From a virus (Duplodnaviria; Caudoviricetes): a DNA stretch of 52,658 nucleotides. A program made the position numbers and the translations under genes. The notes under the pieces are model-generated. The model was not told where the DNA came from. It was given only the letters and a program-made list of their open reading frames with translations, and did no database searches. Shown here in pieces: positions 12,158 to 48,813 of this stretch; position 1 is the first letter of the stretch, and each line of letters opens with the position of its first letter. Location of the stretch: the IMG/VR virus record IMGVR_UViG_3300022866_000011, positions 1 through 52,658 of that record; one strand, 5' to 3'.

Positions 12158-12199
12158 ACTCGATGCCGCCAACTATGCGGACAACCAGAACCGCAACCT

Positions 12200-17227: not shown

Positions 17228-17246
17228 AATAGTGTTTCCCTTTCCG

Positions 17247-23284: not shown

Positions 23285-23318
23285 GATGCCTGATCGTCAA
23301 CGTTGATTTTTGTTCAAC
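23285..23318. promoter_or_regulatory. tandem GTTGA-N7-TCAAC element, copy 2
   Basis: GATGC-CTGATCG-TCAAC-GTTGA-TTTTTGT-TCAAC in a divergent gap. Confidence 0.65.
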
Positions 23319-29426: not shown

Positions 29427-29434
29427 TTATTTGA

Positions 29435-29509
29435 TGCAGGGTAGATCAGTGGTAGATCACTGGCCTCATAAACCAGAAGTCGTCGGTTCGATTCCGTCCC
29501 CTGCTTCCA
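29435..29509 (+). tRNA. tRNA-Met (CAT), initiator-like
   Basis: Cloverleaf with 1:72 mismatch, A11-U24, CT-CAT-AA loop, TTCGATT, encoded CCA. Confidence 0.8.
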
Positions 29510-29515
29510 ATTTAT

Positions 29516-29591
29516 GCACTCGTAGCTCAAATGGTAGAGCGACGTTTTTGTATATCGTAGGTTGCGGGTTCGATTCCTGCCGGGTGCTCCA
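29516..29591 (+). tRNA. tRNA-Thr (TGT)
   Basis: GCACTCG/CGGGTGC acceptor, GCTC/GAGC D stem, TT-TGT-AT loop, encoded CCA. Confidence 0.8.
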
Positions 29592-29596
29592 GTTTA

Positions 29597-29687
29597 GGAA
29601 GGTGAAGCAGTGGGGTAGGCCCGCGACTGGCTTTGAAACCCAGGTCTCGTTTAATCGGGTGGGGTTCGACTCCTCCTCCTTCCGCCA
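29597..29687 (+). tRNA. tRNA-Ser (TGA)-like, long variable arm, probable 8/4 fold
   Basis: GGAAGGTG/CTCCTTCC acceptor, GGGG/CCTC T stem, G discriminator, encoded CCA. Confidence 0.7.
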
Positions 29688-29718
29688 GTCTCCACTACAA
29701 TCCAGAACCCCACAGATT

Positions 29719-30153
29719 ATGAAAGATCGCAGCATAAAAGACCAAAAAACGCAGCCGGTTAACATCAACCCAGCGCCAGGAGACTCAATGGTGCCAGGCC
29801 ATGCCTACACCGCCCTCAAGCAATGCTACGCCCGAGTGATCGCATCGCTCAAAATCAAACCCGAGCGCAAGTCCCTCGCCCAACTCACCGACGAAGCCGA
29901 GCACATCAGCAAAGCGGCATTTACGCTGTGCGACAGCACTGCCTCCACAATGGCCTACGTCGACGGCGCCATCGATGCCCTCAACTACGGCAAACCCGAG
30001 GACATCAAGCGCGCCAAATCTATGCTCGAAAGAGCCCGCCGAGACCTCGTTCTAAGCATGGAATCAGCTAACCACCTGCCGAAGGCTGATAAGATGAGTC
30101 CAACTGAGACGGAGCCGCCGAAGGCTTCGGACGAGTCACCATCTCCCTCTTAG
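29719..30153 (+). CDS. hypothetical protein (144 aa) after the tRNA cluster
   Basis: ATG at 29719; 3' end overlaps the portal gene on the opposite strand by 86 nt. Confidence 0.55.
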   Translation: MKDRSIKDQKTQPVNINPAPGDSMVPGHAYTALKQCYARVIASLKIKPERKSLAQLTDEAEHISKAAFTLCDSTASTMAYVDGAIDALNYGKPEDIKRAKSMLERARRDLVLSMESANHLPKADKMSPTETEPPKASDESPSPS

Positions 30154-32275
30154 GCTGCGGCCCCTTCCCACTGTTGATCGCCTGCTCGGGCGGCAACGGT
30201 GGCAAAGGCACAATCAGCTCGTCCACATTGATCTTCTGGTCGAGCGCCTTGATCATACCGCGGTAGTATTCGGCCACGTGCACCTGGACCAACGGATCCA
30301 GCATGTAAAACCGTTCAATGATTTCAGCAACCTGCGACATCTGCTGAAATTTCTGCTCTCCCTTGTAGCGCGTCATGAACATGGTCACATTCATATTCAC
30401 ATCGCTCACGTCAGCCGGGTCGATCGTCGCAGTAATCTGCTCTCGCCCCTCAAAGTAGCTGAATACCTCTGGCTTGTTCAGGTTAGCCAGAAGCACTAGA
30501 ATCTCACTCTTGAGCACATCGGTAAGACCCGGCTCCAGGTCCGAAAGGAACGGCGCAAACAACTCCTCGCCGGCCTTCTCAATATTGCGGATCCCGGTAG
30601 CCAACTTCGCGGTATCCATGCCCAGAGCTGCCCCATCATTCGCATTCGTCACGCCCGACTCGTTCATCCCCATCTGCATGAAAAACTCGAGCATATCCTT
30701 GAGCGCCTCAAATTTTACGTCGTTCAGGTAAACAGACTGTAACACTTTGGTCACATCAACTCCCGGCACTGTCGTGTAGGACTGCCCCCAATTCAGGCAA
30801 AGGTTCGGATCGTCGCGCCCCTCTAGCACCTTCGAAGGATCCCAGAAATCAACTCGCCCTGCCTTCGATTGGCTCAGGTTCCACCGGTTCACCAGCAGAT
30901 CCACGATCGTCTGGGTAGAGTCAAACATCTCCATGACGCCCTGCCCATACCAACGGTCGTCCACCTCGTTAACTCGCACCACCGCCACCGGCCGCAAGCC
31001 ATCTGGTGACATATTCGCCACGTAATTATAATGCACAGGGAGCCGGTTCTTGCGATCAAGCAGCAGAACGATGTTCTCAAGTATGCCGTCCCCATTGGCA
31101 TCATACCAAAGCATCACCTCGGCCATCTCCACGATAGGCTGACCGCCGCCGGAATATTCAGCATCGTCCTCCTCCTCCTCCTCGTCCCGATTACGAGCAG
31201 ACCCACTCTTCGGCTCTGAGTTGTTATCGAGCATCGTCCGCATGGCGTCTACCGTGCGCTTCATCTGCTCGAAACGTTGGGTATCCGTGCCGCGGAATAC
31301 CCCATGCTTTGCGTAAGTATCGACCAGATCCATGACTCTGCGGTCATACAAATGCGCGATGCAGTCCGCCTGCTGGAGATCAAAAGCATCGAGGGGAGCC
31401 AAGAAATCCTTGTAGTAGATTGGGAGCGATTCTGGACCCTCAAATATCACATGCCGCTTAGTTATTTTCTGATCGGTGTAAACCGGCGCCTCCGGTTCTT
31501 GCGTCACCCCATCACTACCCAACACCCGGAGCCCCGGAGTTTCCGTGTCGATCCAGTCCGCACGCTCCAAGATCATCTCCCCGTTAGCATCCAGGATAGC
31601 CTCACCCTCCGCGCCCACTAGAGCCTTGACCATCGTCTCATAGATTTGATCACGCGTCTGATAAGTGGTTTTGACCACGCACTCACCGAGTAGCATGGCA
31701 CGCTTGACGATCCGCTCCTTGCCCCGTTTTGAACCTATCAGGTTCAGTTTCCACTTGGCATAACGATCGATCTGATCCGCCAACTCCCCATCCTCCATCC
31801 CCTCCGGCGTAGCATTAAACCAAGGATCGGTGGCAAAGAAATAGTTCTGAGCTCGAGCAATCATCTGACGGCAGATCCGGCGCGAGATCGGAACAACCAA
31901 GTTCGACTCCTCAAAGATATTCGGCGACGGCAATGAATACGGTCGCCAGTCCACCCGGTTCTCAAACAGTGCCTCAAAACGTGAACGTCGACCCATCCAG
32001 CTCTCGGCCGCGCCTTCTATTGAATTGGAGGAAACGCCCTCCCCCTTCCACCACTCGTCCTCAATGACGTCCGTGCGGCCCATCGCCTTTTCCATATCGT
32101 CGAGCCGGGTCATCGCATGATCCACCAGCGCAAGCTCCTGATCATAGGTGAGCTGAAGCACGGACGGGAAAGCAACGCGTGGCGTAAGTTGTCCAGTTGT
32201 GCTATCAACATGCGGGGGAGCCTCCACCCCGCTGATGCGATCCTGTAAAACTTCGAGTTGTCCGTGTTCTGCCAT
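30068..32275 (-). CDS. portal protein
   Basis: SNLVVPISRRI, FFATDPWFNATPEG, LGECVVK, WYGQGVME, ATGI patterns; size and position. Confidence 0.85.
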   Translation of the reverse strand: MAEHGQLEVLQDRISGVEAPPHVDSTTGQLTPRVAFPSVLQLTYDQELALVDHAMTRLDDMEKAMGRTDVIEDEWWKGEGVSSNSIEGAAESWMGRRSRFEALFENRVDWRPYSLPSPNIFEESNLVVPISRRICRQMIARAQNYFFATDPWFNATPEGMEDGELADQIDRYAKWKLNLIGSKRGKERIVKRAMLLGECVVKTTYQTRDQIYETMVKALVGAEGEAILDANGEMILERADWIDTETPGLRVLGSDGVTQEPEAPVYTDQKITKRHVIFEGPESLPIYYKDFLAPLDAFDLQQADCIAHLYDRRVMDLVDTYAKHGVFRGTDTQRFEQMKRTVDAMRTMLDNNSEPKSGSARNRDEEEEEDDAEYSGGGQPIVEMAEVMLWYDANGDGILENIVLLLDRKNRLPVHYNYVANMSPDGLRPVAVVRVNEVDDRWYGQGVMEMFDSTQTIVDLLVNRWNLSQSKAGRVDFWDPSKVLEGRDDPNLCLNWGQSYTTVPGVDVTKVLQSVYLNDVKFEALKDMLEFFMQMGMNESGVTNANDGAALGMDTAKLATGIRNIEKAGEELFAPFLSDLEPGLTDVLKSEILVLLANLNKPEVFSYFEGREQITATIDPADVSDVNMNVTMFMTRYKGEQKFQQMSQVAEIIERFYMLDPLVQVHVAEYYRGMIKALDQKINVDELIVPLPPLPPEQAINSGKGPQPKREMVTRPKPSAAPSQLDSSYQPSAGG

Positions 32276-32280: not shown

Positions 32281-32314
32281 GTTCTCTCCCGTTAAACGTT
32301 GATTTTCAATCAAT
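32281..32314. promoter_or_regulatory. tandem GTTGA-N7-TCAAC element, copy 4
   Basis: GTTCT-CTCCCGT-TAAAC-GTTGA-TTTTCAA-TCAAT, overlapping the portal RBS. Confidence 0.55.
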
Positions 32315-35300
32315 TTTGATCAGCAAAGCGATCCGCGCTAGTTCCAAAAAACATATCCCGGCGCACATTGGCTCGAGCTAAGGTAAATGCCCTACGAATT
32401 TTCTCCACATCCTGGGAGGTAGGACGGCTGACATTAAGCGAGACAGATTGCAGCAAACGAGCCGCCATCTTCCCTGAGCGTCGGCTATATTCCTCCAGCA
32501 CCTTGCCGGACAAAGTGCGACGCTCCCCATTCACCGTGATAGATTTCTGCAGGTTGGATGGTGCCCACGACTGCGGATCGTCCGCCGTTTGCCGATAATT
32601 CAGCAAAAGCTGATCCACTCGATTCAACTCGGGGATTTTGCCCACCTCGATCGGCACCAGCATGCGCCATAACGACCCTCCTCGACGTTCAACCTCCTCG
32701 CCATACGGGTCGATTTTTGGAGACCCGGCCGGCCCATAGACATTCTGGACCACCTCGGCAAATAGTCCATGCTCCCGCTCGCGATAGACACCATCAAGCT
32801 GTCGAACTGGTTGACGAAAAAGGTTTGGTATCAGCGTCGATAACTGGGACGCAACAAAGCTCGTAAACCGAGACTCTCCTGACATGGCGCCTGCAAGGTC
32901 CGACCAACCCCGCAGAAAAGTCTTGGAATCCACCGAGTCACCCAAAGCAGACATGAACGCCCCAAACGACTCAAACCCAGACTCACCTGACTTCAAACGA
33001 GAGAGCATATCCACCCCAAGCCCCAGCATCGTCGCTAAAGGCTCAATCCGCGAATAACTGACCTGTGCGCCACCAAATCGAATGGCGTAAGGTGCCAGAC
33101 CCACTCGTCGGTCGAGATTGCGCTGGGAAATCCGATCGCTCGGCAAAGACCCAGTGATCAAAAACTGCTTGTCCTCATCGTCGTCGTCTCCGGCTGCAGC
33201 CCCATAAAGTAAACCGGCCATCGACCAAGCAAGCACCTGCTCTACCGTGTGCTTGATCAGCAGAGGAGTCGGGTAGCTGACCGCCACTGGTCGCCCATCC
33301 TTGATGCGGTAAAGCCCAGCACTGCCTATCCTAGCAGCGAAAGCCACCGCGCCAACCGGCGACTGACGGATACCCTGCTGGAAGATGTTCCACGGCGTCC
33401 GAATAAACGGCATCACAAACCGCAAAGGCTTGATCCCACCCGGAACCTCCAACTCCCGCGCCTTCGACAGGTAGGTCATCCATTTACCCATCCGCGTCCC
33501 ATCATGATCATCCTGAAAGGTCAACTCGTTCGCAAGCAGCAGCGCCTTACGCCAAGACTCCGACCCCGGCGTATCAATCTCCGCCTCAATAAACGAAACC
33601 AATGCCGCCCCCTTCTTTTTTGATGACTTACCCAAGCGGTATGCTTCCGCAGCCACGTGCGTCCGAGCGATCGCCGCCTTAAAGAACGCATCCGTCGCCA
33701 TCAACAGCCGGCCAGGAAGACGCACAACCCGACCAGTCTTGCCCGGAATCGCCGCCTTGATCCCGCCTGCCTTATCGAAAACAGGGTTAATCTCAAGCTG
33801 ACTATTCAGAATCGAACTGGTGTAAATATTCTGCTCGGTTGCCCACGTATTCACCGCAGCAGCCCATGCCCCGGCTAACGACTTATTCATCCCCTTGAGC
33901 ATCCACTTAAACTCGCCGAGCTGTGGCGCCGTTGGATCCTTGACTGCCGCGTTAAGAATCGCCTCGCCCATGCGCTTCACCCCCATGTCCCAAACCGTGT
34001 TAAACGAGTTACCGACGACATTTGCACCCTGCGTCAAAGGACCGGACAAAATCGAATTGATCCAAAACTCAAACAGCATATCGAACGCGCCGCTGTCAGC
34101 TATCTGAATCGTTCTCGCGACCTGGGCCACCTGTGCCGGATCCGAAATATCGAACACCGGTGGAGCCATATCAGCATCCTCACCGAGCCCGAGCTGCGTG
34201 TTTCCAAAGTCGTCGGGACGTTGCCCATCAGCACCAGCAGGAAACTCGACGCTCCCCGGCTTTGCGTTGGCCGGAAACGGTGTCGCTTTGCGTTTAGGCT
34301 TTGCATTGCTTCTGCGCCGACGCTTTGCCTGCGCCTTTTCGGTCCGAATCACTGCCTCCTTGTTCTCGATCAGCCCCATCCGTGAGAGCATCAAATCGAT
34401 TCTCTTCTGGCGCTCCGCTGCCGATAGCCCCCCAGACGTGCCAGATTTCAGGTCAGCCCGAGCAGAACCCAGCGTCGCAGCATCGAGCTTGTCCGGATCC
34501 AAAGCAGCGTCGCCGAGCGTTTCCAATCTTGCACGAGTAGCCGCAATAATCTCAGAGCGAACCTTGACCACCGCAGATACATTCTGATCCGTGCGACGGG
34601 CGACATCGGAATCCGACCAACCCCGTCGAATCAGGCCGACAACCCGTTTCTTTTTCGCATCGTAGCCGGCCTTGTTCATCGCCGAATCAACCAACTTGTT
34701 TCCACGCAGCTTCAAATACGCCTCACCATTGAAAATGTGATCGAGCGTGATACCCATCTTACGGAACGCCGCCTCAACCTTAGCCATGCGACCATCAACC
34801 GCCTTCTTAGCGATCTCCTGCTGGCTGGAACGTTGCATCGCTTCACCCAACTTCAGCCGCATATTGGCCAAGGTCTTATCCTGCCCAGGAGTGCCCGGTG
34901 CACCAACCACGGTCCCGAGCTTCGCAGCCTCCAGATCCGCAATCTTGTTGCGCAGACGATCGACCTCTCGCGCTTTGGCGGACGCCGACCACGAGTCAGA
35001 AAGGTTTTTGCGAACCGATGCCTTCGGTAGAAACAGCGACGACGCGATGAACTCCGAAAACCGTTCCTCGGGAGTTTTGTGGGGATCACGACGAGCAGCC
35101 AATGCTCGCCCCTGTTCGGTTCCAGTCACCCGATACGCGAGCACCACCGCCTGCGCGTCCTTCATCTTCTGGGCATCGCCACTCGATACAGCGTCCTGAA
35201 CCAAGTCGTTGACGATCATCTGAGCCGCACGAGTCTGCACCGGATCATCGAACCCACGGCCATCGTTGGCGCGATCGATCAACTCCCTAACGTAGCCCAC

Positions 35301-38300
35301 CCGGTCCTTGTCTAGCCGCTCCTGTGCCGCTTTGTCCCACATTTCGACCGTTTCACGCTCACGTCCAGGTTTCATGGCCTCGTCAACTGCGTCGACTACG
35401 CTACGAGATTCAGAATCCTCCGCAGGATTTGCCAAGTCAGGACGTCCCTGTATTTTGCGGCCATTCTGCTCGAAGTTTTGATTTGCGACAATCTCCTTGA
35501 TCGAAGACGGCACCCGCCGACGTAACGCCGCAAGACCCTCCGTCACCGCCGCCTGATCATCCAACGCCGCCCGTTCAGCGTTAGTCCCAGCCTCTAATCG
35601 TCGACCGCCATCACTCCGCCCTTGAGGGACGTCTGCTGGTGGCGTTTCAGTAGCTCCTCCGGCCACTGGCTCGGCGGCTTGCTGTTCATCAGCTCGATCT
35701 CGCTTTCGCTTACTGGCAGGTTCTTCTCTGCGAACGCTGCTAATTTTATCGACCGGTTCCACCGATTCGTCTGCGCGAGCTTCGACCGATTGTAATCCTC
35801 GAGCTTCGACTGCTGCTCGCGCTTTCCCTTCGAGATCATAGAGTTTTCCGGTTTTGGGGTCATAGTTAAAAGCAACTAGCTCCGGCTTATCCGAGCGCCT
35901 GGTTTCTTTCAAAACAGTGAACCCCAATCGCTGAAGATGCAATACCGTTTCAGAATCCCAGTTATTGGTGATCATGAGCTTGGAACCCTTTTTCCAAGCA
36001 TCAAGCACCGGCCCACTCAAAAGCTGCTGAAAAGCGATTCGGCCGGTCTGGGCCTCCAAGGGAGTGGCGTAATTACTCGAATCCCCAGAGTAACCCGGAT
36101 CCAGCATGAAAAAAGTGTCGGGACCGGCGCGATCGACGAGTTTCTTATACCCGTCACCTTGCTCCACCTCGGTCAGTGCCATGTTTTCCGAATACTCCCG
36201 CAACAGTTTATTGTAGGACTCACCGCTCCGGAAAATCGCTCGCTCGCCCATCTTAGTCAAAATCGGCTTTAATGTTCCAATCTTCACCGCTTGCTCGTCG
36301 GCACCAAGCCCCGGCAAGGCGACAGTATTTGGGTCGTCGTCCTTCTTTGGCTTTCTTTTATGAAACTCCAGCTCTAGCGAGATGCCGCCGGCCGAAATGT
36401 TCTGAAGCGCCAAGTAAAGTCCCGCAACATCTGCCGTTTGCGGCAATACGATTGGGCCTAGTTCCGCCAAGGCTGCGGCATTATCCGGCAAAAGCCCCTT
36501 GATCGTTTCACGAGCAACCGCGTCGATCTTCGGATACACCTCCTGCAATCGCAGGTTTTCCGGGCGACCATTAGCAGGAGTGTCGATATCAATCTGGTCA
36601 AACAAATCCTGCCACTTGTCATGAGCCTTTATCACCCCCTCAACATCATTCTTGATCGCAGCAAACGTCGCAAACCTCAGCGCATTCCATTCATTGTGCA
36701 CCCGCGGGATGCCACGATGACCTAAACGGGCAAGCACATTGCCGTAGAACCCAGCGCCGGCCATGAGATCGCCGACCAATTTGACGCCCTCTGCACCCGA
36801 AAGGATCACCCCGGCCAGCTTCCCGCTGATCGCCGACTTGTTGCCCAAAAACGGGAAAAGTAGGGTATTTTGTAGCTTGGCCTTCTGCACCGGAGTCACC
36901 TCAGGAACCGCAACATTGTCACCATCCCCCTCCGTGTTTTGATCATTAAACAGGTCCGACCGGCCACTCTTTAGCGTCTCGGGCCGAATGTAGATTACTG
37001 GATCGATAAACTGAATCTTGCCGAAATTATCGATCACCACGTTCTCGTCGTGCAGATCCTCGACCAAAACCTCACCGCGTCGGTAATTGTCGGCATTAAT
37101 CCGACGGAACCCCTCAAGCTCCATAGCCTCCTCGGTCTCTGCTCGGGTCGCCCCACGACGAACGATGACATACGCCTGCGAAAGCACTGGGGCAATCAAG
37201 CCCTCCGAGGTTTCGGTGAACCCCAATAGCCTCGGCCCTGTCTCCTCGAAAAGCAGATTGTGAATCTGAACCCGATCAAAGAATTCGTCATAGCCCAGAT
37301 GAAAAGGCAGCACCGTCGCGCCACCAAAACTATCATCGACAAAGTTGCGCTTAGTTACGGTCAGGCCATCCGTCCCCATAATGACTTGATGCTCCTCCCC
37401 GCCTACCTCCCCGCCTTCTTTCCACTGCTTCTCGAACTGGTCCGAATCAATCATCGCACCATTCTCCTGCGCCCACTTTCGGAGCGCATCAGACTGGCGG
37501 TTTTTTACTTTTTGGGTTTCGCTGGGCGTTTGCCGGCCAGCATCTCGGACTGCCGAAGTAGATCCGCTGGCAACGCGGGACGCTTCTGCAGCAACTTCTG
37601 CTGAAGATCCATCGAACGGATCGCCAAACGACTGCGTTCTTTTCCGGCCTTTGTCTTTTGAAACGACATCTTCATCCGTAGACTTTACACCACGCGTCAA
37701 GTCTGTGCCCGCAGCCACGCGTAACTGCTCGGCTTCAATTTGCTGACCCAAAGGATTCCTCGGAACAGATCGACCGCTGAACAGTAAATCCGGGTCCGGC
37801 GTGCCCAGACTCAGCGCATATCCAAATGCCTCCTCCCGCTTCGGAAAGTGAACGTGATTGACCGCCCGCATCGACGAACCGACCTTTTTATCGTCACTCC
37901 CCTCAAAGAGAATCCAGGTCACCCGCCAAGGATGCTCGCCCTCCCTCGAATTACGAGAAGTAAACAGAGCATTATTAGGGCGTCCACCAGCCTGAAATGC
38001 CACCACATCAGGGACTTCCTTTGCCCACTGCAAAACCTGCCGCTCCCAAGCCGCACGGTCACTGAGTCTAAGCAAATCATCTGGCACTGGGGGATACGAT
38101 GCCTTGCCCGATCGAAGGATATCCGCGCTTACTCCGCGACCATCTAGGATCTTGCGGAGCTGCTTCATCGCGATCTGCAAATTGTAGTGCGCCGATTGAA
38201 CGCTATTAAGGCCCAATGCCTCCTGCACATCACTCAACTGTCCGTCCTTCATGTAGACCCGCAGCGCAGTCGCTCGCTTGTAGTCCATAATCGCCAACGC

Positions 38301-41300
38301 TTCGTTGACAATCTGCGCAGCCGTCGTTTGACGTTCCTGCTCCCCCACCTCGGTCGCCACATCCGAACCACTCTCCAGCGTGTCTAGGATTGTGCCGCCA
38401 CCGCCATCGTTTGAGTCATCAGAAGAAAAGCTCTCGCCGGACGCACCTCCAGCGCCAGCATCCGTCGAGACCTCAAGAGACACTCGTTTGACGTTCGTAG
38501 CAAACATCGTGCTAAGGCGCCGCCGCATCAGGTTGCCGGCAAACTGCCAAAAGGAACGAGCAGTCCCCTCCTTACCCACTCCATAGTCGGCAAACTTCTT
38601 ATTGCCCTCTTTTTGAGTGAAAGCAGAAACACCGCTCGCAGCCTCCCAGAGTAACAGACGAGCCTGCTGCATCAGATCCTCAAGTCCCACGCCCGGAGTG
38701 TTGTTGAACCGCGTCGCAGCCATGCGCTCGGCAGCAGGGCGATACTTCTCGAACAGTTGCTCCGGCGCCAGATCAACATCCGAACCAAACCTCAACTCAT
38801 GCTTGCGCACCTTGTCTTGGGTAGGTATGGGAACCGCACGAACAGCACTGGCCTCTGTTTCGGGGTTCTCCTCAGTCTTGGCATCTTCGGCAACATTTTC
38901 TAATTTGTCGTTTTCAGAAGCCTTCGTCGGCGATTTGGCACGCTCGGCAATGCTCTTTGCGGCTGCGATCGCGCCGGAATGCCCTCGCATCTCCGGGATT
39001 TCCTTTGCCATCAAGCTCAGAACACCTCCCGCGGAATTCGCGACAGCAGGAGGAAGATTGTCCGCGTAGATTTTCGCCTCGTCGTTAAGACCCAACTGAC
39101 CAAAAAAGTCCAAGGTATCGTCCGACCCAGAACGTCCGGATTTCAAAATACTCGGATCGTTCGCGTCAAACGTGCCTCGGTTTCCGATCGCTGACTTGAT
39201 CTGAGTCTGATCAAAGGCGATAAAGGAATCCTCCTGATTCCCCATCAAAAACCGTCTGTGTGCAGTCTGCGCATCCTCCAAATCTTTAAACTCCTGAGTC
39301 GCCTGAACCTCATCTGGGACGTAATAAAACGGCACCTTTTTACCCATTAACTCAGCCACCTTTTCTTTAGCGTCCACCAAAGCCTTGCGAGTAACACCTG
39401 CACCGCCGGATTCGCCTTCATTTTTATAGACAACCCCGTCGTGTCCTTCGCCCTTCAGGAACCGAATCACATCTGCCTCTGTTTTCACTCCAAATGCCCG
39501 GACCGTCTTATCCCCAAACAATCGGTCCAACTGGTCCTCAAGACCCGAATCTAAGTCCCAAGATCCGTAGTCTTCTAGCCGCACAGGGTTCTTGATATTC
39601 AGATAAACAGGAAGCACGCGTGTGCCCTTTTCCCTGATTCTTCCAGAAGAGATTACGCTGTCGAGTCGGTCTGTCGCTTGACCTGCCGTCCCAAAGTGCA
39701 TCCCAAACCCGTCACCCGACCTGAAGACGCTAAAGTTCTCGTCCGCCCCAGTGCCGTGATAAACAACACGCGGCGCACCATTCGCATCCACCACGCTCGA
39801 CTTGCCAAACCACCGCTTAAACGCCGGCGTTTCCGTCTGCTCAGACCGGCCACTCTTCAAAACCGCACCAATACGACGGGCACTCAGGCTACGAGCCGAT
39901 GCCAGAATCTCATCCGCGCCCATTTCGGTGGCCTGCTTCCAAATCTGCGCGGGAGTTGCCGGTTCAATCGCAAACATCGCCTCCTGCTTCGGGTCGCCCT
40001 GCCCGTATACGAGCGTCACGTAATTATTCAGCACTTCGGCAATCTTCCCACCCTTGCGCCGGTTCTCGACCAACCACTGAAGCATCGCCTCCTGAAGCTC
40101 AGACCGTTCGGAAATGGCCCCAAGCTCCTGCTGATTGACCAATGCATCGAGCGCTGCCTCCACGGACTGGCTGGAAGGCTTGTCCCGCAGCGTTTGAGCA
40201 ATGTCCTGCACTGCTCGCGCAATGTCAGCCGAGATCCCGATCGGATGCAGCGCACCGTCTTCGATCGCGGTATTCATGGCCGCAACCTTCGGTGCCACCT
40301 TCATCATGGCGCCGATCAGACCACGAACACCGGCATCGTCCTCATTGACCAGCCGACCAAATGCAGCCGCCCCCTCCGGGGATCCAGAGTAAGCCTTGGC
40401 AAACATCGCAGCCTCGATGCGCCGATTCAGGTCCGTATCGCTTATATTCGCCGAAGTGTCCTTGATTACCGAGGAGACGAACTCCTGCCGGAATGGAAGA
40501 TTGCGACCCGCCGAAATGTCAAAATCAGGGTTGTAGAACGAAATCACCTCGGGACTCAAACGGTCCGAATCCTGCCGAGCCTGCTCAACTGTGTTCGTCG
40601 CAGCGCCGGCAAACTGGTTTGAATCCTCCGAGGCTTCCCGCAAGTCCTCAACCGGCATCGATGTGATTGCAACACGGACAAGAACCGGATTCTCAACCAA
40701 GTCGACGACCTCCGCCGAAATGCCCTTACTCCGTGCCACCGCGCCCAAGTCCTCCTGGAACTTACCCGCGACATCAGACAGACTCGAATCGTCATACATC
40801 AGGCTCTTCCCATTGGCCCGACCATTGCCCATCACCGTCACCGCTTGCCCGGAAACGAACGCCACGATCGGCAGACCCTGCGCGGTCGTCCCGGCCAGCA
40901 TCTCCTCGTCCATGTTCGGATTTGCGGCAATCTGGCGCTGCTGAGAAACGTAAATATCACCGGCACGATCCCGTGGCTGCAGCGCATCCGGGTAGCCGTT
41001 GCGCACGATCCCGTCAGGAGTGTGCGACGATGGAAACTGATCCGCACCAGAGAGCACGTTGACCGTCCAAAAGTTCTTTCCCTTGTGGGTCACCTTTTCG
41101 AGTCGACCAATCTGCTCGGGCGAAACCCCTAACTCGCCAGCCAAGGCTGCAACGCTTGCAACGTCCAGTGATCCATTGGCATCAGTCGTAAGTTGTGCAC
41201 GCGGTCCGGTCGCACCCTCTGCGGCACCACCAAATGACTGATCGCCTGCAGCTTCGACGCTACGAGCGCCACCCTCGGTGTCCGAACTCGGGAACTCCTT

Positions 41301-44300
41301 GACTCCGGCCAAAACAGCCTCGATCGGCGCATCCAAACGGATAACCCGGATCGTTTCGTCTGGGGACACGTTAACCTTCGAGAGCCACTGGTGATGCCCA
41401 TCGACCACATGCCCATCACTCGAAACCAGAATTGCACGGTCGCCACCCTTGAAGCCCTCGGCCTTCTTTACCTTTGCCGGCGAGAACTCCGCCTGCGTAG
41501 GTTTCAGCGAACCGGGTAGAATATTATCCTCTGCGCTTTCGATACCTCGTGCTTTCAGGAATTGAACCAACGCTCCCCGGTTCTCGGCCTTAACCTGGGG
41601 CATATCCGAGCGAGGAATCCCCAGAGTGCCACTGTCGGCAGCAAAAGCAGACCACAGCCGGTTGACCTTTTCTCCGGTCAATGCCTCGGAGTTAGAAGGT
41701 TCCGCAGCCGCCAAACCGCTGTCCTGATCCGATACCCCTAACGAATCTGGCTCTCTGTTATCCGGCGACTGCGAAGTGGTGTCGGGAGCGGCCGTAGCCG
41801 TATCTCCAGCTTCTGCTGATGTGGTATCAGATGATACTGGTGCGGTTTCCCCCGGATCGCTTGGAGTGCTTCCTGCACCTTGGTCTGGGTTTCCGTTGCC
41901 ATCACGTTCTTGATACCGACCATACAGCACGCTGTCAGTCCCATTTATCTGCTCGAGCTGTGCACCGATCTCGTCGGCGATCAGCTTCATATCGCCCATG
42001 CCTTCGGAATCCCCGGTTGCAGAGTCCATGATCCACGACCGCAAGGCAGTCAGGGCATCACGAATGAACGAAATCAGTTTTTCAGAGGCACGCTCCTCCG
42101 AGAGTTGTCCGTTGATGACCAATCGGCCATCCTGCCGGACCTGCATTCGACCCTGAACGAGCATCCGCACCGCTTCATGCGCCATTGCCCGATCACTCAC
42201 CGGACCCGACGCGCCAGGCTCATAGATGCGCTTGAAAGTGTAGCGTTCTTGGCTGGATAGAGAATCCCATGCCTCGGTAGCGTTCCACCGGCCCGCCTCC
42301 TCCATCCGCTGTGAAATGATGTGGGCCCCCTCTTCCACCGCCAAAGCAACCATGCGATCGGGATCCAAAATAGCCTGATCGTTGCCCTCTGCCACGATAT
42401 CCCCGATGGAGACGAGCAACGTGCCATCCGAATCCACCGCAAGGCCACCAGACCCCAACTCCTCCTGCACAACTCGCATCGATGGGAAGGTGGCGCCCAA
42501 TGTCCCAAGCGCCTTATTAACGTTCTCCGCTGCACGACGTGCGACAGTTAGCTTCTGTTCCGGCGTTCCGCCCTTCGAAACACGATTAACCGCCTCGAGG
42601 AACTGACCGGGAGGTATCGCCTCCACCTTCTGTGTTTCACGTGGAACAGCAGTCTCCGTTGATTTTTCAGAAACTTCTGGTTGAGCGGCTTGCTCAGATT
42701 GAGTGCCCTGCTCCTTGGCGCGAGCGATCAACTGCGAAACCTCCGCCTCGGTGCGTGGCATCAACGACTCAGCAGACGAAACCCCCTCGATCATCCAAGC
42801 CCGAGCCTTGTCGGTGATCACTTGAAAACCCTCCTCGTCTTTGACCATTTCGGTCCCGATCCGTTCCCCCACGACCGTGAGAGCCGCTTGTTCAGCTTCC
42901 GGCAGTTGGTTAACGTTTAACCCGTTAGCAATTCGAAGTAATCCCCGAGCAGCATCCCGATTAGAATCCTTAAGCTTCGCCGTCTCGGTTTCCACCTGCA
43001 CCGGGTCAGATTCTGGGTCAAACTGAGGATCAAAATCCTGCATCGCCTCCACCTGATCCACTGCTTGCCGATTGACCTCCAACCAGCCTGAAAGTTTCGC
43101 CAACTCCTGTGCCGCAGTCTCGTCCTGCCCACCAGCTGCGTCGTATTCGGCGAGAAACGCCTTCACCTTGTCCGCACCACCGACCAGTTCGATCGCCGCC
43201 CGAGATCCAGGATCATCGATCATTGAAAGCACCTTCGCCCGGTTTACGGGAGCAGACTCCACCGCAATACCCGCCTCGGTCTTTGGCCCAGCTGCGATCA
43301 ACGCACCACCACCACCGAGACCACCGCCGACAACCACAGCCTGCCCGACCGCTTCGCCCACGCCCTCGCTCAATTTGCGATCAGGATCGATACGCTGAAC
43401 CTGAGAGTTTAACCCAACCCGCCCCAACCCTTCCTCGGCAGCTTCACTGAGCGCCTCAGTTGCCGCGGTAACACCCGCACCAGCGAGCCGGCCAGCAACT
43501 CCGGCCGCGCCAGCCTTGCCAGCCAAAACCTTCTCCAATGTCCCAAGCCCCGGAATCATCTGCGGGACACCCTGCGCCAGCATCGAAACACCAAATGCGA
43601 TCGCACCCGAGCGGCGACCAATTGAGAGAGCCAAAGCCAGCTTTGCATCCTCGATCGACTCGCCAGACTCAACCGCAGCAGCAATCTCCGGCAGACCCAT
43701 TGCGGCCTCGTCGCTCATTTCATGCAACGCCACCACCGCCTCGTCGTAGCCATCGCCGCCCACATCACCACCCTGCAAGGCAGCACCAACGCCGACCTGA
43801 GAGCCAACCGCCACAGCCGCAGCTAGACGCTTGGATGCCTTACCCGCTGCCGTCTTTAGTAAAAGTTTAGTCGCCGCCTTACCCGTAAGAGCAGCAGCGC
43901 CACCAGCCCCCGCCAGATTCGGCAGTTGTTCGGCCAGTGCATTCGTAAACAGTTCAGGACTCGCCACGGTGGACTTAACATAGGCCAAAGCCTTCCCAAA
44001 CCACCCATCGACCGAATCAATCGCATCCTTTCGCTCCGCCTCCCCCTTCTTTAAACCTGCTGAGACCTTCGCCCCCCAGTAGTCCATGCCGTGATCACCA
44101 AACTCGCTGACCACGTTGTCCATGTTGCCGGTAGTCAGCCCGTAAAGGTCGCCGGCCATCTTCAAAATAGCATTGGACCCACGACCAAACGAAGCAACCA
44201 GATCACCAGCTCGACGACCAACCTCCCCAGTAAATGTTGGATCCTTCTCTGGCTGTGCGGCCGGTTTACCCTGCTTCACCGGAGCCTCGAAAGATTCGGG

Positions 44301-45422
44301 CACCCCGGCAACTTCCGCCGCCCTGCCATTAGCAATGACGGTATCCGCCACCTTAAAACCATAGTCCTGCTGGATCCGATCAATCTCCTTCAGAATAGGG
44401 TCATCCTTCGCAGACCGGCCCAACTTCTTCAAAACCGCCAGACGCTCGCCGCGCAAATCGGCATAATCCTCCAGCTTCGACTCGGCCACCCACACATCGC
44501 GCTCACTCTTCAGAGCCTCCATGCGTGCAGCACTGGCGCCAATACCCACCGCACCAGTTGACCAAGCAGACTCCAACTCACCGATCCCAGAAGTAATCTC
44601 CGTTGATTCGCTGTCAATTTTTTCGACCTGGGCCTGTAATCTCTTCGCCTCTGGGCTTAACCCCCTTGAAAACATCCCACCATCCGACCATTTACCCTGA
44701 GCTTTTAATTCCTGCTCTTGCTCACCCAGAGCCATGCGTTCCGCCCCCAACTGACTGATCCGCCCCTGTGCGTCTGCGATTTTCACATCGCTGGTTTCCT
44801 TTTCCTGATCAAGCAGCATGATCTGCCTATTGAGGGGAGCCAAAGCCGCCTTCTGAGCGTCACCTCGCCACGCTTTCCGGGCTTTTCGCGCCGAAATTGC
44901 GACGTCCGGATTTTTGGAACCGATTAAATCATCAACATGCCCAGCGTTTTCCTGCCCAGACTCTCCAAAATCATAGTAAAGATTCGGATCCTCCGCGTCT
45001 GCACCACGAACCATCGGAACCGCCTTGTGCTCTGTCTTGCCGCTCGTGCTCCGACGCCCCAGCGCCCACGAACCATCCTCGCGCTTGGTTTTCTTCCAAT
45101 CGCCAGTCTTGTAGACCACTCCACCAGCCTCGTCACGATTCGGCCGCAGGATACCATCCTCACCCTTATAAAAATCAATTCCCTTCTGCCGAAACTGATC
45201 CTCCAGCTTCGCCATATTCGCGGTTTTGGTCGCCTTGGCTCGATCCGCCTCGCGCCGAACCCTTGCCGGATTACCAGCCGGCAAATCGTTTACCTTGTAA
45301 CCACGCTGGCTAAAATCGCTGATATTCTCGCCAACCGGCTTCCTTGTTCCTCTTCCCGCGAACATACTAGGAGCACCACCACCAAGACGGTTCTCATCTT
45401 CTAATTGATCGTTTAAAGGCAT
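32310..45422 (-). CDS. giant polyvalent internal virion/ejection protein (4370 aa)
   Basis: ParB-like (LKPTQ, VDGHHQW), ddrB-ParB-like (PSSH, LQPRDR), ART-PolyVal-like (FKRWFG, YHGT), sigma-70-like, kinase (DLHDEN, IDP), adenine MTase (FLGNK, DLMAGAG, DPGY), C-terminal PFIRTPWN/SYSRIEP. Confidence 0.85.
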   Translation of the reverse strand: MPLNDQLEDENRLGGGAPSMFAGRGTRKPVGENISDFSQRGYKVNDLPAGNPARVRREADRAKATKTANMAKLEDQFRQKGIDFYKGEDGILRPNRDEAGGVVYKTGDWKKTKREDGSWALGRRSTSGKTEHKAVPMVRGADAEDPNLYYDFGESGQENAGHVDDLIGSKNPDVAISARKARKAWRGDAQKAALAPLNRQIMLLDQEKETSDVKIADAQGRISQLGAERMALGEQEQELKAQGKWSDGGMFSRGLSPEAKRLQAQVEKIDSESTEITSGIGELESAWSTGAVGIGASAARMEALKSERDVWVAESKLEDYADLRGERLAVLKKLGRSAKDDPILKEIDRIQQDYGFKVADTVIANGRAAEVAGVPESFEAPVKQGKPAAQPEKDPTFTGEVGRRAGDLVASFGRGSNAILKMAGDLYGLTTGNMDNVVSEFGDHGMDYWGAKVSAGLKKGEAERKDAIDSVDGWFGKALAYVKSTVASPELFTNALAEQLPNLAGAGGAAALTGKAATKLLLKTAAGKASKRLAAAVAVGSQVGVGAALQGGDVGGDGYDEAVVALHEMSDEAAMGLPEIAAAVESGESIEDAKLALALSIGRRSGAIAFGVSMLAQGVPQMIPGLGTLEKVLAGKAGAAGVAGRLAGAGVTAATEALSEAAEEGLGRVGLNSQVQRIDPDRKLSEGVGEAVGQAVVVGGGLGGGGALIAAGPKTEAGIAVESAPVNRAKVLSMIDDPGSRAAIELVGGADKVKAFLAEYDAAGGQDETAAQELAKLSGWLEVNRQAVDQVEAMQDFDPQFDPESDPVQVETETAKLKDSNRDAARGLLRIANGLNVNQLPEAEQAALTVVGERIGTEMVKDEEGFQVITDKARAWMIEGVSSAESLMPRTEAEVSQLIARAKEQGTQSEQAAQPEVSEKSTETAVPRETQKVEAIPPGQFLEAVNRVSKGGTPEQKLTVARRAAENVNKALGTLGATFPSMRVVQEELGSGGLAVDSDGTLLVSIGDIVAEGNDQAILDPDRMVALAVEEGAHIISQRMEEAGRWNATEAWDSLSSQERYTFKRIYEPGASGPVSDRAMAHEAVRMLVQGRMQVRQDGRLVINGQLSEERASEKLISFIRDALTALRSWIMDSATGDSEGMGDMKLIADEIGAQLEQINGTDSVLYGRYQERDGNGNPDQGAGSTPSDPGETAPVSSDTTSAEAGDTATAAPDTTSQSPDNREPDSLGVSDQDSGLAAAEPSNSEALTGEKVNRLWSAFAADSGTLGIPRSDMPQVKAENRGALVQFLKARGIESAEDNILPGSLKPTQAEFSPAKVKKAEGFKGGDRAILVSSDGHVVDGHHQWLSKVNVSPDETIRVIRLDAPIEAVLAGVKEFPSSDTEGGARSVEAAGDQSFGGAAEGATGPRAQLTTDANGSLDVASVAALAGELGVSPEQIGRLEKVTHKGKNFWTVNVLSGADQFPSSHTPDGIVRNGYPDALQPRDRAGDIYVSQQRQIAANPNMDEEMLAGTTAQGLPIVAFVSGQAVTVMGNGRANGKSLMYDDSSLSDVAGKFQEDLGAVARSKGISAEVVDLVENPVLVRVAITSMPVEDLREASEDSNQFAGAATNTVEQARQDSDRLSPEVISFYNPDFDISAGRNLPFRQEFVSSVIKDTSANISDTDLNRRIEAAMFAKAYSGSPEGAAAFGRLVNEDDAGVRGLIGAMMKVAPKVAAMNTAIEDGALHPIGISADIARAVQDIAQTLRDKPSSQSVEAALDALVNQQELGAISERSELQEAMLQWLVENRRKGGKIAEVLNNYVTLVYGQGDPKQEAMFAIEPATPAQIWKQATEMGADEILASARSLSARRIGAVLKSGRSEQTETPAFKRWFGKSSVVDANGAPRVVYHGTGADENFSVFRSGDGFGMHFGTAGQATDRLDSVISSGRIREKGTRVLPVYLNIKNPVRLEDYGSWDLDSGLEDQLDRLFGDKTVRAFGVKTEADVIRFLKGEGHDGVVYKNEGESGGAGVTRKALVDAKEKVAELMGKKVPFYYVPDEVQATQEFKDLEDAQTAHRRFLMGNQEDSFIAFDQTQIKSAIGNRGTFDANDPSILKSGRSGSDDTLDFFGQLGLNDEAKIYADNLPPAVANSAGGVLSLMAKEIPEMRGHSGAIAAAKSIAERAKSPTKASENDKLENVAEDAKTEENPETEASAVRAVPIPTQDKVRKHELRFGSDVDLAPEQLFEKYRPAAERMAATRFNNTPGVGLEDLMQQARLLLWEAASGVSAFTQKEGNKKFADYGVGKEGTARSFWQFAGNLMRRRLSTMFATNVKRVSLEVSTDAGAGGASGESFSSDDSNDGGGGTILDTLESGSDVATEVGEQERQTTAAQIVNEALAIMDYKRATALRVYMKDGQLSDVQEALGLNSVQSAHYNLQIAMKQLRKILDGRGVSADILRSGKASYPPVPDDLLRLSDRAAWERQVLQWAKEVPDVVAFQAGGRPNNALFTSRNSREGEHPWRVTWILFEGSDDKKVGSSMRAVNHVHFPKREEAFGYALSLGTPDPDLLFSGRSVPRNPLGQQIEAEQLRVAAGTDLTRGVKSTDEDVVSKDKGRKRTQSFGDPFDGSSAEVAAEASRVASGSTSAVRDAGRQTPSETQKVKNRQSDALRKWAQENGAMIDSDQFEKQWKEGGEVGGEEHQVIMGTDGLTVTKRNFVDDSFGGATVLPFHLGYDEFFDRVQIHNLLFEETGPRLLGFTETSEGLIAPVLSQAYVIVRRGATRAETEEAMELEGFRRINADNYRRGEVLVEDLHDENVVIDNFGKIQFIDPVIYIRPETLKSGRSDLFNDQNTEGDGDNVAVPEVTPVQKAKLQNTLLFPFLGNKSAISGKLAGVILSGAEGVKLVGDLMAGAGFYGNVLARLGHRGIPRVHNEWNALRFATFAAIKNDVEGVIKAHDKWQDLFDQIDIDTPANGRPENLRLQEVYPKIDAVARETIKGLLPDNAAALAELGPIVLPQTADVAGLYLALQNISAGGISLELEFHKRKPKKDDDPNTVALPGLGADEQAVKIGTLKPILTKMGERAIFRSGESYNKLLREYSENMALTEVEQGDGYKKLVDRAGPDTFFMLDPGYSGDSSNYATPLEAQTGRIAFQQLLSGPVLDAWKKGSKLMITNNWDSETVLHLQRLGFTVLKETRRSDKPELVAFNYDPKTGKLYDLEGKARAAVEARGLQSVEARADESVEPVDKISSVRREEPASKRKRDRADEQQAAEPVAGGATETPPADVPQGRSDGGRRLEAGTNAERAALDDQAAVTEGLAALRRRVPSSIKEIVANQNFEQNGRKIQGRPDLANPAEDSESRSVVDAVDEAMKPGRERETVEMWDKAAQERLDKDRVGYVRELIDRANDGRGFDDPVQTRAAQMIVNDLVQDAVSSGDAQKMKDAQAVVLAYRVTGTEQGRALAARRDPHKTPEERFSEFIASSLFLPKASVRKNLSDSWSASAKAREVDRLRNKIADLEAAKLGTVVGAPGTPGQDKTLANMRLKLGEAMQRSSQQEIAKKAVDGRMAKVEAAFRKMGITLDHIFNGEAYLKLRGNKLVDSAMNKAGYDAKKKRVVGLIRRGWSDSDVARRTDQNVSAVVKVRSEIIAATRARLETLGDAALDPDKLDAATLGSARADLKSGTSGGLSAAERQKRIDLMLSRMGLIENKEAVIRTEKAQAKRRRRSNAKPKRKATPFPANAKPGSVEFPAGADGQRPDDFGNTQLGLGEDADMAPPVFDISDPAQVAQVARTIQIADSGAFDMLFEFWINSILSGPLTQGANVVGNSFNTVWDMGVKRMGEAILNAAVKDPTAPQLGEFKWMLKGMNKSLAGAWAAAVNTWATEQNIYTSSILNSQLEINPVFDKAGGIKAAIPGKTGRVVRLPGRLLMATDAFFKAAIARTHVAAEAYRLGKSSKKKGAALVSFIEAEIDTPGSESWRKALLLANELTFQDDHDGTRMGKWMTYLSKARELEVPGGIKPLRFVMPFIRTPWNIFQQGIRQSPVGAVAFAARIGSAGLYRIKDGRPVAVSYPTPLLIKHTVEQVLAWSMAGLLYGAAAGDDDDEDKQFLITGSLPSDRISQRNLDRRVGLAPYAIRFGGAQVSYSRIEPLATMLGLGVDMLSRLKSGESGFESFGAFMSALGDSVDSKTFLRGWSDLAGAMSGESRFTSFVASQLSTLIPNLFRQPVRQLDGVYREREHGLFAEVVQNVYGPAGSPKIDPYGEEVERRGGSLWRMLVPIEVGKIPELNRVDQLLLNYRQTADDPQSWAPSNLQKSITVNGERRTLSGKVLEEYSRRSGKMAARLLQSVSLNVSRPTSQDVEKIRRAFTLARANVRRDMFFGTSADRFADQN

Positions 45423-46711: not shown

Positions 46712-46745
46712 GTTGCTCTCGTGTCAACGTTGCACATAGCACAAC
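46712..46745. promoter_or_regulatory. tandem GTTGA-N7-TCAAC element, copy 5
   Basis: GTTGC-TCTCGTG-TCAAC-GTTGC-ACATAGC-ACAAC; contains TTGACA on the minus strand. Confidence 0.6.
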
Positions 46746-48639: not shown

Positions 48640-48673
48640 GTTGTTTATCTTTCAGTGTTGATTCTGAATCAAC
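48640..48673. promoter_or_regulatory. tandem GTTGA-N7-TCAAC element, copy 6
   Basis: GTTGT-TTATCTT-TCAGT-GTTGA-TTCTGAA-TCAAC, 2 nt from the terL start. Confidence 0.65.
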
Positions 48674-48773
48674 TTTTTACTTGCCGACCTAGACCCATCC
48701 TTACATCGGTAAAAGCGCGATCGACGTGTGCGCGTCTTAACCACTTTTCTACCTTCACGGGAGAAATCATCAG

Positions 48774-48813
48774 GAGGCCCGAGCTGCGCACACGGCTCGG
48801 GCCTCTCTGTTTT
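48774..48813 (+). terminator. leader terminator/attenuator hairpin
   Basis: GAGGCCCGAGCTG-CGCACA-CGGCTCGGGCCTC followed by TCTGTTTT. Confidence 0.7.

Follow-up and report, generated by a model that had tools for sequence, protein, structure and literature searches.

The sigma factors known from phages are encoded by genes that are expressed after infection. To our knowledge, transcription functions delivered with the virion are known only as whole RNA polymerases (RNAPs), in N4 and phiKZ-type phages, or as polymerase-modifying enzymes, in the case of T4 Alt. The ART-PolyVal, Kinase-PolyVal, and ddrB-ParB families were defined on polyvalent proteins of phages and conjugative elements. According to passages in three papers, the virion RNAP of N4 and the schitoviruses has ~3500 residues, is carried in the capsid of a short-tailed phage, and is expelled with the ejection proteins (PMC13434306, PMC12633501, PMC5512222). 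A passage in one of these papers describes T4 Alt as a head-packaged ADP-ribosyltransferase that modifies host RNAP (PMC5512222), and another predicts that polyvalent proteins are packaged and injected (Iyer, Burroughs, Anand, de Souza, Aravind 2017, J Bacteriol, PMC5512222). Group 2 jumbo phages encode stand-alone sigma factors, as stated in a passage of PMC7824862. The word "sigma" occurs 0 times in the main text of PMC5512222, and our literature search returned no paper on a sigma domain in polyvalent proteins or on a virion-delivered sigma factor. Here we describe a sigma-70-like cassette in the phage record IMGVR_UViG_3300022866_000011. The window is this whole IMG/VR virus record, a linear stretch of 52,658 bp with a CheckV completeness estimate of 67%. 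As judged from its sequence, it encodes a real, diverged sigma-family cassette within a giant polyvalent protein that is presumed capsid cargo, and from this we infer its delivery and function. Our best explanation, to which we assign a probability of roughly 0.45, is that the cassette travels as capsid cargo and, after ejection, would bind host core RNAP and direct it to phage promoters.

A sequence-only reading of this DNA had placed a sigma-70-like factor within a virion polyprotein at 38140..38770. These coordinates held, and the strand proved to be the minus strand, inside the open reading frame (ORF) 32310..45422 (-). A plus-strand reading of 38140-38770 was discarded, with many stops in frame 1, the one frame read. 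All the peptides quoted in that reading are present in the translation of the giant ORF, and the linker motifs said to bound the sigma-like stretch lie at amino acid (aa) 2093 and aa 2436. The segment from LFEKYRPAAERMA to MKQLRKIL spans aa 2223-2426, corresponding to nt 38145-38756 (-). The whole sigma cassette occupies 38100..39128 (-), aa 2099-2441, between two linkers and with the downstream motif included. Its relatives are found in three other proteins (P0006, P0003, and P0002), and the four sequences together form alignment A1.

The cassette can be divided into five parts. An N-terminal extension (38931..39128 (-), aa 2099-2164) has 11 of 66 columns invariant in the four members (17%) and is modeled as low-confidence helices. 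It is followed by an acidic, probably disordered spacer (38769..38930 (-), aa 2165-2218) with an isoelectric point (pI) of 4.7 and a predicted local distance difference test score (pLDDT) of <50 at module residues 60-99. The region-2-like domain (38451..38768 (-), aa 2219-2324) contains motifs resembling regions 2.1, 2.2, and 2.3 and is the best-conserved part. A Gly/Asp/Ser-rich linker (38343..38450 (-), aa 2325-2360; invariant GGGTI-D-ESG-DVA; pLDDT <50) connects it to the region-4 domain (38130..38342 (-), aa 2361-2431), in which region 4.1 and the helix-turn-helix of region 4.2 are modeled with a pLDDT of 79-86. We propose from the sequence that the region-2-like part is a core-binding and melting domain and that region 3 is absent, as in ECF-type sigma factors; LEDLMQQARLLLWEA is the part expected to lie on the beta-prime clamp helices if the cassette acts as a sigma factor. 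An in-frame ATG occurs at aa 2138 (39009-39011, (-)), within the N-terminal extension, with GGAGG 13 nt upstream. An internal start at this codon yielding a free sigma factor was rejected because no stop precedes the end of the giant ORF, and the product would be a C-terminal fragment of ~2,230 aa.

The similarity to sigma factors was examined with family models. The NCBIfam model TIGR02937 (sigma70-ECF) matched module residues 121-327 with an E-value of 2.1e-6 and 27.4 bits, co-linear with profile positions 2-164/165. This model matched four of four members at E<=0.1, and RpoH models matched two of the four, with a best E-value of 5.1e-4. When the region-2 part was searched alone, TIGR02937 was the sole NCBIfam match (E=0.004, profile positions 2-55); the region-4 part alone gave no TIGR02937 match. 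We also built a hidden Markov model (HMM) from the aligned Escherichia coli sigma factors FliA, RpoE, RpoH, FecI, and RpoS (alignment A3). Both parts together scored 15.9 bits against it (P=3.5e-7), and the best of 400 shuffled sequences reached 4.8 bits. The region-4 part scored 11.9 bits (P=6e-6) and the region-2 part 5.0 bits (P=7e-4), the latter compared with a 99th percentile of 1.7 and a maximum of 6.5 among 400 shuffles; the region-2 parts of the orthologues gave P values of 0.013-0.037. A deeper template from FliA homologues was abandoned: the set was of no use for a broader profile because it contained only enterobacterial FliA of at least 81% identity.

Profiles were also compared with each other. 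The hhalign score of A1 against A3 was 38.1 (P=1.4e-4), and at low mact the alignment covered 207 columns across both regions. The reversed control scored 10.1, and 60 column shuffles averaged 13.7 with a maximum of 21.2, so that 0 of 60 reached the real score. For region 4 alone, the P value was 1.1e-4 and 0 of 40 shuffles reached the score. For the reverse search, all six reading frames of the complete E. coli K-12 chromosome were compared with the A1 profile, and a single match emerged, at 3599938-3600351 inside rpoH (E=0.011). The MAFFT alignment placed LFEKYRPAAERMA with FliA LWQRYVPLVRHEA, LEDLMQQARLLLWEAAS with LDDLLQAGGIGLLNAVE, and GNKKFADYGV with QGTAFTTYAV, the region-2 motifs being in register with FliA, RpoS, RpoH, and RpoE; IVNEALAIMDYKRATALRVY...LSDVQEALGLNSVQ...AMKQLRKIL was aligned with region 4 of all five E. 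coli sigma factors. Among PDB sequences, FliA was the best phmmer match of the cassette (E=0.07). FliA also accounted for two of the three matches of the region-2 half (E=0.21, in the register of regions 2.1-2.2), and RpoS for two of the three matches of the region-4 half (E about 1). The cassette thus shows the co-linear similarity to region 2 and region 4 that characterizes the sigma-70 family.

Structure comparison bore mainly on the second half. With Foldseek, the module model had no match at E<=0.001; the best was sigma-32 (8hkc_E, E=3.2e-3, probability 0.99), and among the matches listed, nearly all were sigma factors or initiation complexes. A VIA-align wide search, which is independent of Foldseek, ranked sigma-L of Mycobacterium tuberculosis (6dv9_F) first among 48,161 chains for region 4, with a Z score of 9.4 and a root mean square deviation (rmsd) of 1.6 A over 74 residues. 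Rows 1-28 of this search were sigma entries by title, and helix-turn-helix regulators of the LuxR/NarL type appeared from rank 32 at Z<=5.8. A second look at region 4 against sigma-A and sigma-L gave Z scores of 9.4-9.7 and rmsd values of 1.6-2.1 A over 74-80 residues. The predicted model of this part therefore has the fold expected of region 4, namely the 4.1 helices followed by the 4.2 helix-turn-helix. The nearest ESM Atlas clusters, at scores of 0.96-0.97, belong to Sigma70_r2, r4_2, or ECF families, some of them viral, and are taken as a lead only. These results make it nearly certain that the second half of the cassette is a sigma-type region 4. That the whole stretch is a two-domain module of the sigma-70 family is also probable, and here TIGR02937, the A3 HMM, and the region-4 fold bear out the claim of a region-2-like part, a linker, and region 4 within a giant multi-module protein. 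Region 2 is the weaker half, with weak sequence support and a fold that was not recovered.

Several results weigh against the identification. The TIGR02937 score of 27.4 bits is below the curated cut-off of 42.9, and the same model gives matches below its cut-off in archaeal control genomes without sigma factors; therefore, sub-cut-off matches alone are not specific. At E<=1, Pfam Sigma70_r2, r4, r4_2, and ECF did not match any of the four members, and no sigma family was found in PHROGs with the cassette or its halves. With the whole 4370-aa protein as query, NCBIfam returned nothing at E<=0.01. In hhalign, region 2 alone gave a P value of 0.4, and 23 of 40 shuffles reached its score. The A1 profile searched against PDB sequences placed an unrelated 89-aa "transposase" chain (8b6g_CL, E=0.0066) ahead of RpoH (E=0.07). 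The models were also of low confidence outside region 4: the pLDDT was 53.7 for the whole cassette, in the same model that gives 79-86 for region 4, and 58.7 for an AlphaFold model of region 2 only. For this low-confidence region-2 model, the best Foldseek E-value was 1.8, with FliA at ranks 18 and 29, and in the VIA wide search ECF sigma-2 domains occupied ranks 27, 28, 31, 42, and 44 (Z 4.6-5.0) and were outranked by unrelated helical bundles (Z 7.1). The comparison with sigma profiles and folds, which the sequence-only reading had named among its checks, was divided: hhalign over both regions (P=1.4e-4) and the region-4 fold (Z 9.4) spoke for a sigma factor, and the silence of Pfam together with the region-2 results (P=0.4, fold not recovered) spoke against one.

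The imbalance between the two halves raises the question of whether the cassette is a DNA-binding module only, in which a sigma-4-type helix-turn-helix and an unrelated helical domain would bind the phage genome, in a pilot, end-protection, or regulatory role, with no contact to RNAP. Fold-level evidence does exist for region 4 alone, the region-2 fold was not recovered, hhalign is unsupportive there, and passages of PMC5512222 report helix-turn-helix and other double-stranded-DNA-binding domains in polyvalent proteins. However, the region-2 part by itself picks TIGR02937 (E=0.004) and matches the E. coli sigma factors at P=7e-4, and two of its three PDB matches are FliA in the register of regions 2.1-2.2. 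Furthermore, its motifs DL-Q...L..A and G..F..Y align with four E. coli sigma factors, and the two parts are co-linear with sigma-like spacing. We therefore consider this explanation unlikely and retain that of a two-domain sigma factor.

We next consider conservation and distribution. Among the four members, 63-64% of the columns in the region-2-like part are invariant (59 of 93), compared with 19% in region 4.1 and 38% in region 4.2, and the recognition helix of region 4.2 varies among them. Such a constant region-2-like half with a drifting region 4 fits a working sigma factor that co-evolves with its promoters, and it fits a blocker that binds core RNAP as well. The MAFFT alignment with the E. 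coli sigma factors also revealed an insertion of ~10 residues at the equivalent of regions 2.3-2.4. The cassette is rare. Among 1.84 billion representative proteins, it retrieved itself, P0002, P0003, and the repetitive 614-aa protein P0004, which was treated as spurious and not as a relative; no stand-alone homologue of the cassette was present in this set. Against 90% clusters, five proteins were found, all of them giant (2,851-4,513 aa). Searches with the cassette for related DNA were negative in IMG/VR and in GTDB genomes, tblastn gave no match in 50,697 phage records (INPHARED), and a metagenome search returned one identical contig only (L001).

The carrier of the cassette is encoded at 32310..45422 (-), a gene of 4370 aa (stop included in the coordinates) that takes up 25% of the 52.7-kb record and has zero cysteine codons. 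A ddrB-like ParB domain lies in its conserved chassis (40671..41021 (-), aa 1468-1584), with a Pfam E-value of 1.6e-8 in the whole protein (35.2 bits) and 1.4e-9 in the piece alone. An ART-PolyVal ADP-ribosyltransferase (ART) domain (39168..39788 (-), aa 1879-2085; 7.4e-16, 59.6 bits) is immediately upstream of the sigma cassette, and a Kinase-PolyVal domain (36984..37505 (-), aa 2640-2813; 8.7e-25, 88 bits) is found further downstream. All three exceed the Pfam gathering cut-offs, and the protein thus has the multi-effector composition of polyvalent proteins. A basic C-terminal module (32313..34442 (-), aa 3661-4370, pI 9.7), also part of the conserved chassis, resembles internal virion proteins, and aa 4089-4221 within it match phrog_6651, "internal virion protein", at E=1.3e-9. 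The Pfam scan of the whole giant protein at E<=1 lists four families, none of them a polymerase, and separate scans of six further pieces returned ddrB-ParB and a sub-cut-off repeat match to Pox_A_type_inc (E 0.011). Neither the whole protein nor its pieces contained a Pfam single-subunit RNAP domain of the N4 type, and Pfam detected neither a metallopeptidase (MPTase) nor a MuF domain in the whole protein. In the rest of the record, no other sigma factor or RNAP turned up, the Pfam scans included.

Cysteine is absent from the giant protein (0 of 4370 residues), compared with 135 of 11548 residues (1.17%) in 42 other ORFs of the record, a difference with a binomial probability of 4.8e-23. The proteins of its relatives show the same tendency, with zero cysteines each in P0005, P0006, and P0003 and one each in P0002 and in the ORF of the more distant relative L007. 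The absence of cysteine is consistent with a protein that would pass through the tail channel and the cell envelope; we found no literature on cysteine absence in such proteins. Three other large ORFs of the window also lack cysteine, at 45432-46625 (397 aa), 15476-17341 (621 aa), and 7358-8644 (428 aa), all on the minus strand. The 397-aa ORF may be additional capsid or ejection cargo because it is placed between the terminase gene and the giant gene.

The gene lies in the packaging and head region. On the minus strand, the order is the terminase large subunit gene, the 397-aa ORF, the giant gene, and the portal gene, with major head and scaffold genes beyond. The terminase gene (46745..48637 (-)) is two genes upstream of the giant gene and was assigned by PHROG terminase families and by tblastn identities of 25-31% to annotated phage terminases. 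The portal gene (30068..32275 (-)) is directly downstream and matches Pfam SU10_portal (8.8e-22) and the PHROG portal family (2.8e-19). The giant gene is therefore found among head and packaging genes, as is typical of polyvalent proteins. Together with the effector domains and a mosaic architecture that differs between close relatives (see below), these observations cover the features of Iyer et al. 2017 that we tested, and as far as its sequence goes the carrier is a phage polyvalent protein. The sequence-only reading had taken it for a virion protein, and this description stands in the sense that the carrier looks like virion cargo, as indicated by its PolyVal domains, its position between terminase and portal, its internal-virion-protein-like C-terminus (PHROG, 1.3e-9), and its zero cysteines.

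The organization of the carrier was analyzed through its linkers. Six copies of the motif L-[KRF]-S-G-[RKT]-[SA] are present, at aa 1855, 2093, 2436, 2547, 2817, and 3658. The linker upstream of the sigma cassette, LKSGRS (39129..39146 (-), aa 2093-2098), forms the junction with the ART cassette and coincides with a homology breakpoint, and the downstream linker is LRSGKA (38100..38117 (-), aa 2436-2441), for which the relatives have LASGRS and LASTPAG. Across the relatives, the linker variants include LASGRS, LSSGRS, LASTPAG, and similar sequences. The giant protein was cut at these motifs, and each piece was searched by BLASTP against P0006, P0003, and P0002. The points at which homology starts and stops coincided with the linker motifs, and the linkers are therefore regarded as true module joints.

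Common and specific pieces alternate along the protein. The N-terminal chassis with ParB (aa 1-1857) is common to the relatives. The ART piece (aa 1858-2095) had no match in P0006, P0003, P0002, or L007. The sigma cassette (aa 2096-2438) was present in three of three relatives at 44-48% identity, with alignments running from aa 2097 to aa 2430-2435, and was followed by a 111-aa companion piece (aa 2439-2549) in the same three at 48-52% identity. The kinase piece (aa 2550-2819), like the ART piece, had no match in P0006, P0003, P0002, or L007. The next piece (aa 2820-3660) is common to P0006 and in part to P0003, and the C-terminal module (aa 3661-4370) showed 50-52% identity in P0003 and P0006 and 40% in L007; P0002 ends at a contig end. 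The chassis, the sigma cassette, and the 111-aa cassette are thus common, whereas the ART and kinase cassettes are specific to this phage among the relatives, a mosaic of the kind described for polyvalent proteins. The companion cassette (37776..38099 (-), aa 2442-2549) follows the sigma cassette in all four proteins with the latter, and the two occur together in four of four proteins having either. No Pfam family was found for the companion, and its best ESM Atlas score of 0.81 was uninformative; it could serve the sigma factor as a co-factor, or as an internal anti-sigma that would hold it inactive up to delivery. In the aa 2820-3660 cassette (34443-36965, (-)), we noted the sequence LDPGYSG; at this place another cassette, with MDPPYY, is found in P0002 and P0003. 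By eye, this is similar to the DPPY motif of N6-adenine DNA methyltransferases, for which Pfam gives no confirmation.

The linkers also suggest how the protein might be processed. The capsid maturation proteases of the herpesvirus/HK97 type recognize [VLI]-x-A|S and cleave behind its small residue, a site to which the L-x-S|G linker is similar. Proteolytic cutting at the linkers would be in keeping with these motifs.

The sequence-only reading had further named 34-bp elements as candidate targets of the sigma factor, a proposal that found no support. The only repeated intergenic element that we found is a symmetric palindrome, GTTGATTnnnnATCAAC, of 17 bp, or ~23 bp with its symmetric AA-N flanks, in late-gene positions. 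It is located at 12019-12035, 23302-23318, 32298-32314, and 48657-48673. With up to 3 mismatches, 25 matches were counted, compared with 12.0 +/- 4.7 in shuffled sequences, and 0 of 100 shuffles reached 25. The copy at 48657 is 19 nt upstream of the terminase ATG and that at 32298 is 22 nt upstream of the portal ATG; the copy at 23302 lies 26 and 38 nt upstream of the starts of a divergent structural pair, and that at 12019 is at the junction of two plus-strand ORFs. Given their two-fold symmetry and late-gene position, these elements would be poor promoters for a sigma factor acting at entry. The palindrome suits an operator of a dimeric regulator, or an RNA/DNA hairpin of 5-7 bp, better than an asymmetric -35/-10 promoter. 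A scan for sigma-70 promoters and terminators around the terminase region remained at shuffle level. Upstream of the terminase gene, the divergent region contains a terminator-like 14-bp GC-rich hairpin followed by a T run, at 48773-48806 (+).

These elements bear on where and when a sigma factor of this kind would act. A late-gene sigma factor working in the producing cell within one and the same infection, either as the giant protein or as a fragment released from it, with the packaging of the cassette incidental or absent, would agree with the position of the gene in the late structural block and with the fact that the sole repeated intergenic element precedes late genes, namely terminase, portal, and the structural divergent pair. 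Stand-alone phage sigma factors for middle and late genes are also common, according to a passage of PMC7824862. By contrast, a late sigma factor inside a late gene is unable to switch on that gene, and sigma promoters do not have the two-fold symmetry of these elements. In addition, the zero cysteines and the chassis architecture point to cargo, and a stand-alone homologue of the cassette is absent from the 1.84 billion representative proteins. In our view these points make action in the producing cell improbable.

A different use of delivered cargo would be blockade. Here, an injected sigma mimic would use its region-2-like domain to occupy host core RNAP without initiation, in competition with the sigma factors of the host, and contribute to host shut-off alongside the ART and the kinase. 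The conservation pattern agrees with this, as the core-docking region-2-like part is the most conserved (63-64% invariant) and region 4 drifts (19-38%). The insertion of ~10 residues falls where regions 2.3 and 2.4 are normally continuous, the intergenic DNA has no asymmetric promoter-like motif, and the adjoining cassettes are host-modifying enzymes. However, a complete and well-folded region 4 with a sigma-type helix-turn-helix is kept in four of four members and is unneeded by a pure blocker, and variation in the recognition helix is equally expected from co-evolution with promoters. We accordingly give blockade little weight. Chance resemblance of a helical spacer unrelated to sigma factors is very improbable, for although no score attains a curated cut-off, Pfam and PHROGs return no sigma family, and an unrelated chain leads one profile search, independent lines (TIGR02937, the A3 HMM and profile with their shuffles, the reverse search that found rpoH only, and two fold searches) agree on family, order, and register.

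For the preferred explanation, that of a delivered sigma factor that redirects host core RNAP, other observations have to be set on the opposite side. The record encodes an integrase, an HTH_3 protein, RecT, and a resolvase (Pfam), and because of this gene set the phage looks temperate; temperate phages normally begin transcription on host sigma-70. No host genome was found in GTDB genomes with the portal as query. No protease was identified for linker cleavage. No convincing asymmetric promoter-like motif emerged when 4.9 kb of intergenic DNA were screened by k-mers. Finally, a distant relative does without the cassette: L007, a 58-kb IMG/VR contig with a 4,052-aa ORF at 263-12421 (+), shares with the giant protein the ParB region, the region before the C-terminus, and the C-terminus itself (40% identity), has ~600 aa of unrelated sequence in place of the ART, sigma, companion, kinase, and following cassettes, and lacks both the sigma cassette and its 111-aa companion.

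Packaging, cleavage, delivery, RNAP binding, and promoter-specific initiation are steps that we infer, and they can be arranged as follows. The giant protein would be synthesized late, and its conserved chassis, made up of the N-terminal region together with the basic C-terminus that resembles internal virion proteins, would bring it into the capsid. It may then be cut at the L-x-S-G linkers and would leave the capsid together with the DNA. In the newly infected cell, the sigma cassette would dock on host core RNAP and direct the enzyme to phage promoters ahead of all phage protein synthesis, and the ADP-ribosyltransferase and kinase cassettes would modify host proteins concurrently. The fullest version of this scheme, in which a cysteine-free polyprotein packs a ready-made sigma factor that is freed at the L-x-S-G joints, ejected with the DNA, and captures host core RNAP, with the ART and the kinase disabling the host, is offered tentatively, and we consider the odds to be against it. 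If the preferred explanation is correct, it would explain how a phage without its own polymerase bypasses the host sigma-70 program at entry. The coincidence of linkers with cassette boundaries provides a testable handle on how giant proteins of this kind are built, shuffled, and possibly cut.

Further features of the window were recorded. The terminase shows at most 31.5% identity to any of the 10 matching phage records (tblastn), so that no close cultured relative exists among them and no host call was made. Two tRNA genes, tRNA-Met (CAT) at 29435-29509 and tRNA-Thr (TGT) at 29516-29591, both on the plus strand, lie within a 240-aa ORF with a TTG start (29431..30153), which is probably no gene because of the two tRNA genes inside it. 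A 45-nt direct repeat is present at 373-417 and 901-945 (93% identity, 528 bp spacing); the 300-aa ORF 493..1395 contains one copy and is preceded by the other. The cysteine-free 428-aa ORF 7358..8644 (-), for which no family was found, contains a degenerate internal repeat at 7528-8254 with a period of ~51-54 nt (repeat families D1, D2, and D4).

Compared with known systems, the carrier agrees with the polyvalent proteins in being a giant multi-domain protein in the structural region, with the family-defining Pfam domains and mosaic cassettes that vary between relatives. It differs from them in its sigma cassette and in having a recurrent L-x-S-G linker in place of the MPTase or MuF domain, neither of which was found. 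If our explanation is correct, transcription initiation factors would join the catalogue of polyvalent-protein effectors. The cassette itself shares with the sigma-70 family (TIGR02937, FliA, RpoH, RpoE, and SigL 6dv9_F) the order and spacing of motifs like those of regions 2.1-2.3 and of regions 4.1-4.2, and with ECF-like sigma factors the lack of region 3, a flexible interdomain linker, and the region-4 fold (rmsd 1.6 A over 74 residues). Unlike these proteins, it is internal to a 4370-aa protein rather than a free protein of ~190-250 aa, scores below every curated cut-off, carries the insertion of ~10 residues at regions 2.3-2.4, and has an extra conserved N-terminal extension and an acidic spacer; no anti-sigma gene is evident. 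As with stand-alone phage sigma factors, a phage-supplied sigma factor is predicted here to recruit the host catalytic core to phage promoters. Those factors are separate genes expressed after infection, whereas the present cassette forms part of a protein presumed to be capsid cargo.

In polyvalent logic, T4 Alt is the closest analogue, an injected protein that re-aims host RNAP, and the giant protein has its ART-PolyVal domain immediately before the sigma cassette. Alt modifies RNAP covalently and does not take the place of its sigma subunit. The closest functional analogue is the N4 virion RNAP, a transcription starter brought in with the DNA in the passages cited above. N4 carries a whole single-subunit polymerase, whereas the genes of this phage point to a specificity subunit that would need the host core. 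If this is correct, carrying a sigma factor in the capsid would solve the same problem at lower cost, and it would represent a third route to the control of transcription from the start of infection, beside virion RNAPs and injected RNAP-modifying enzymes.

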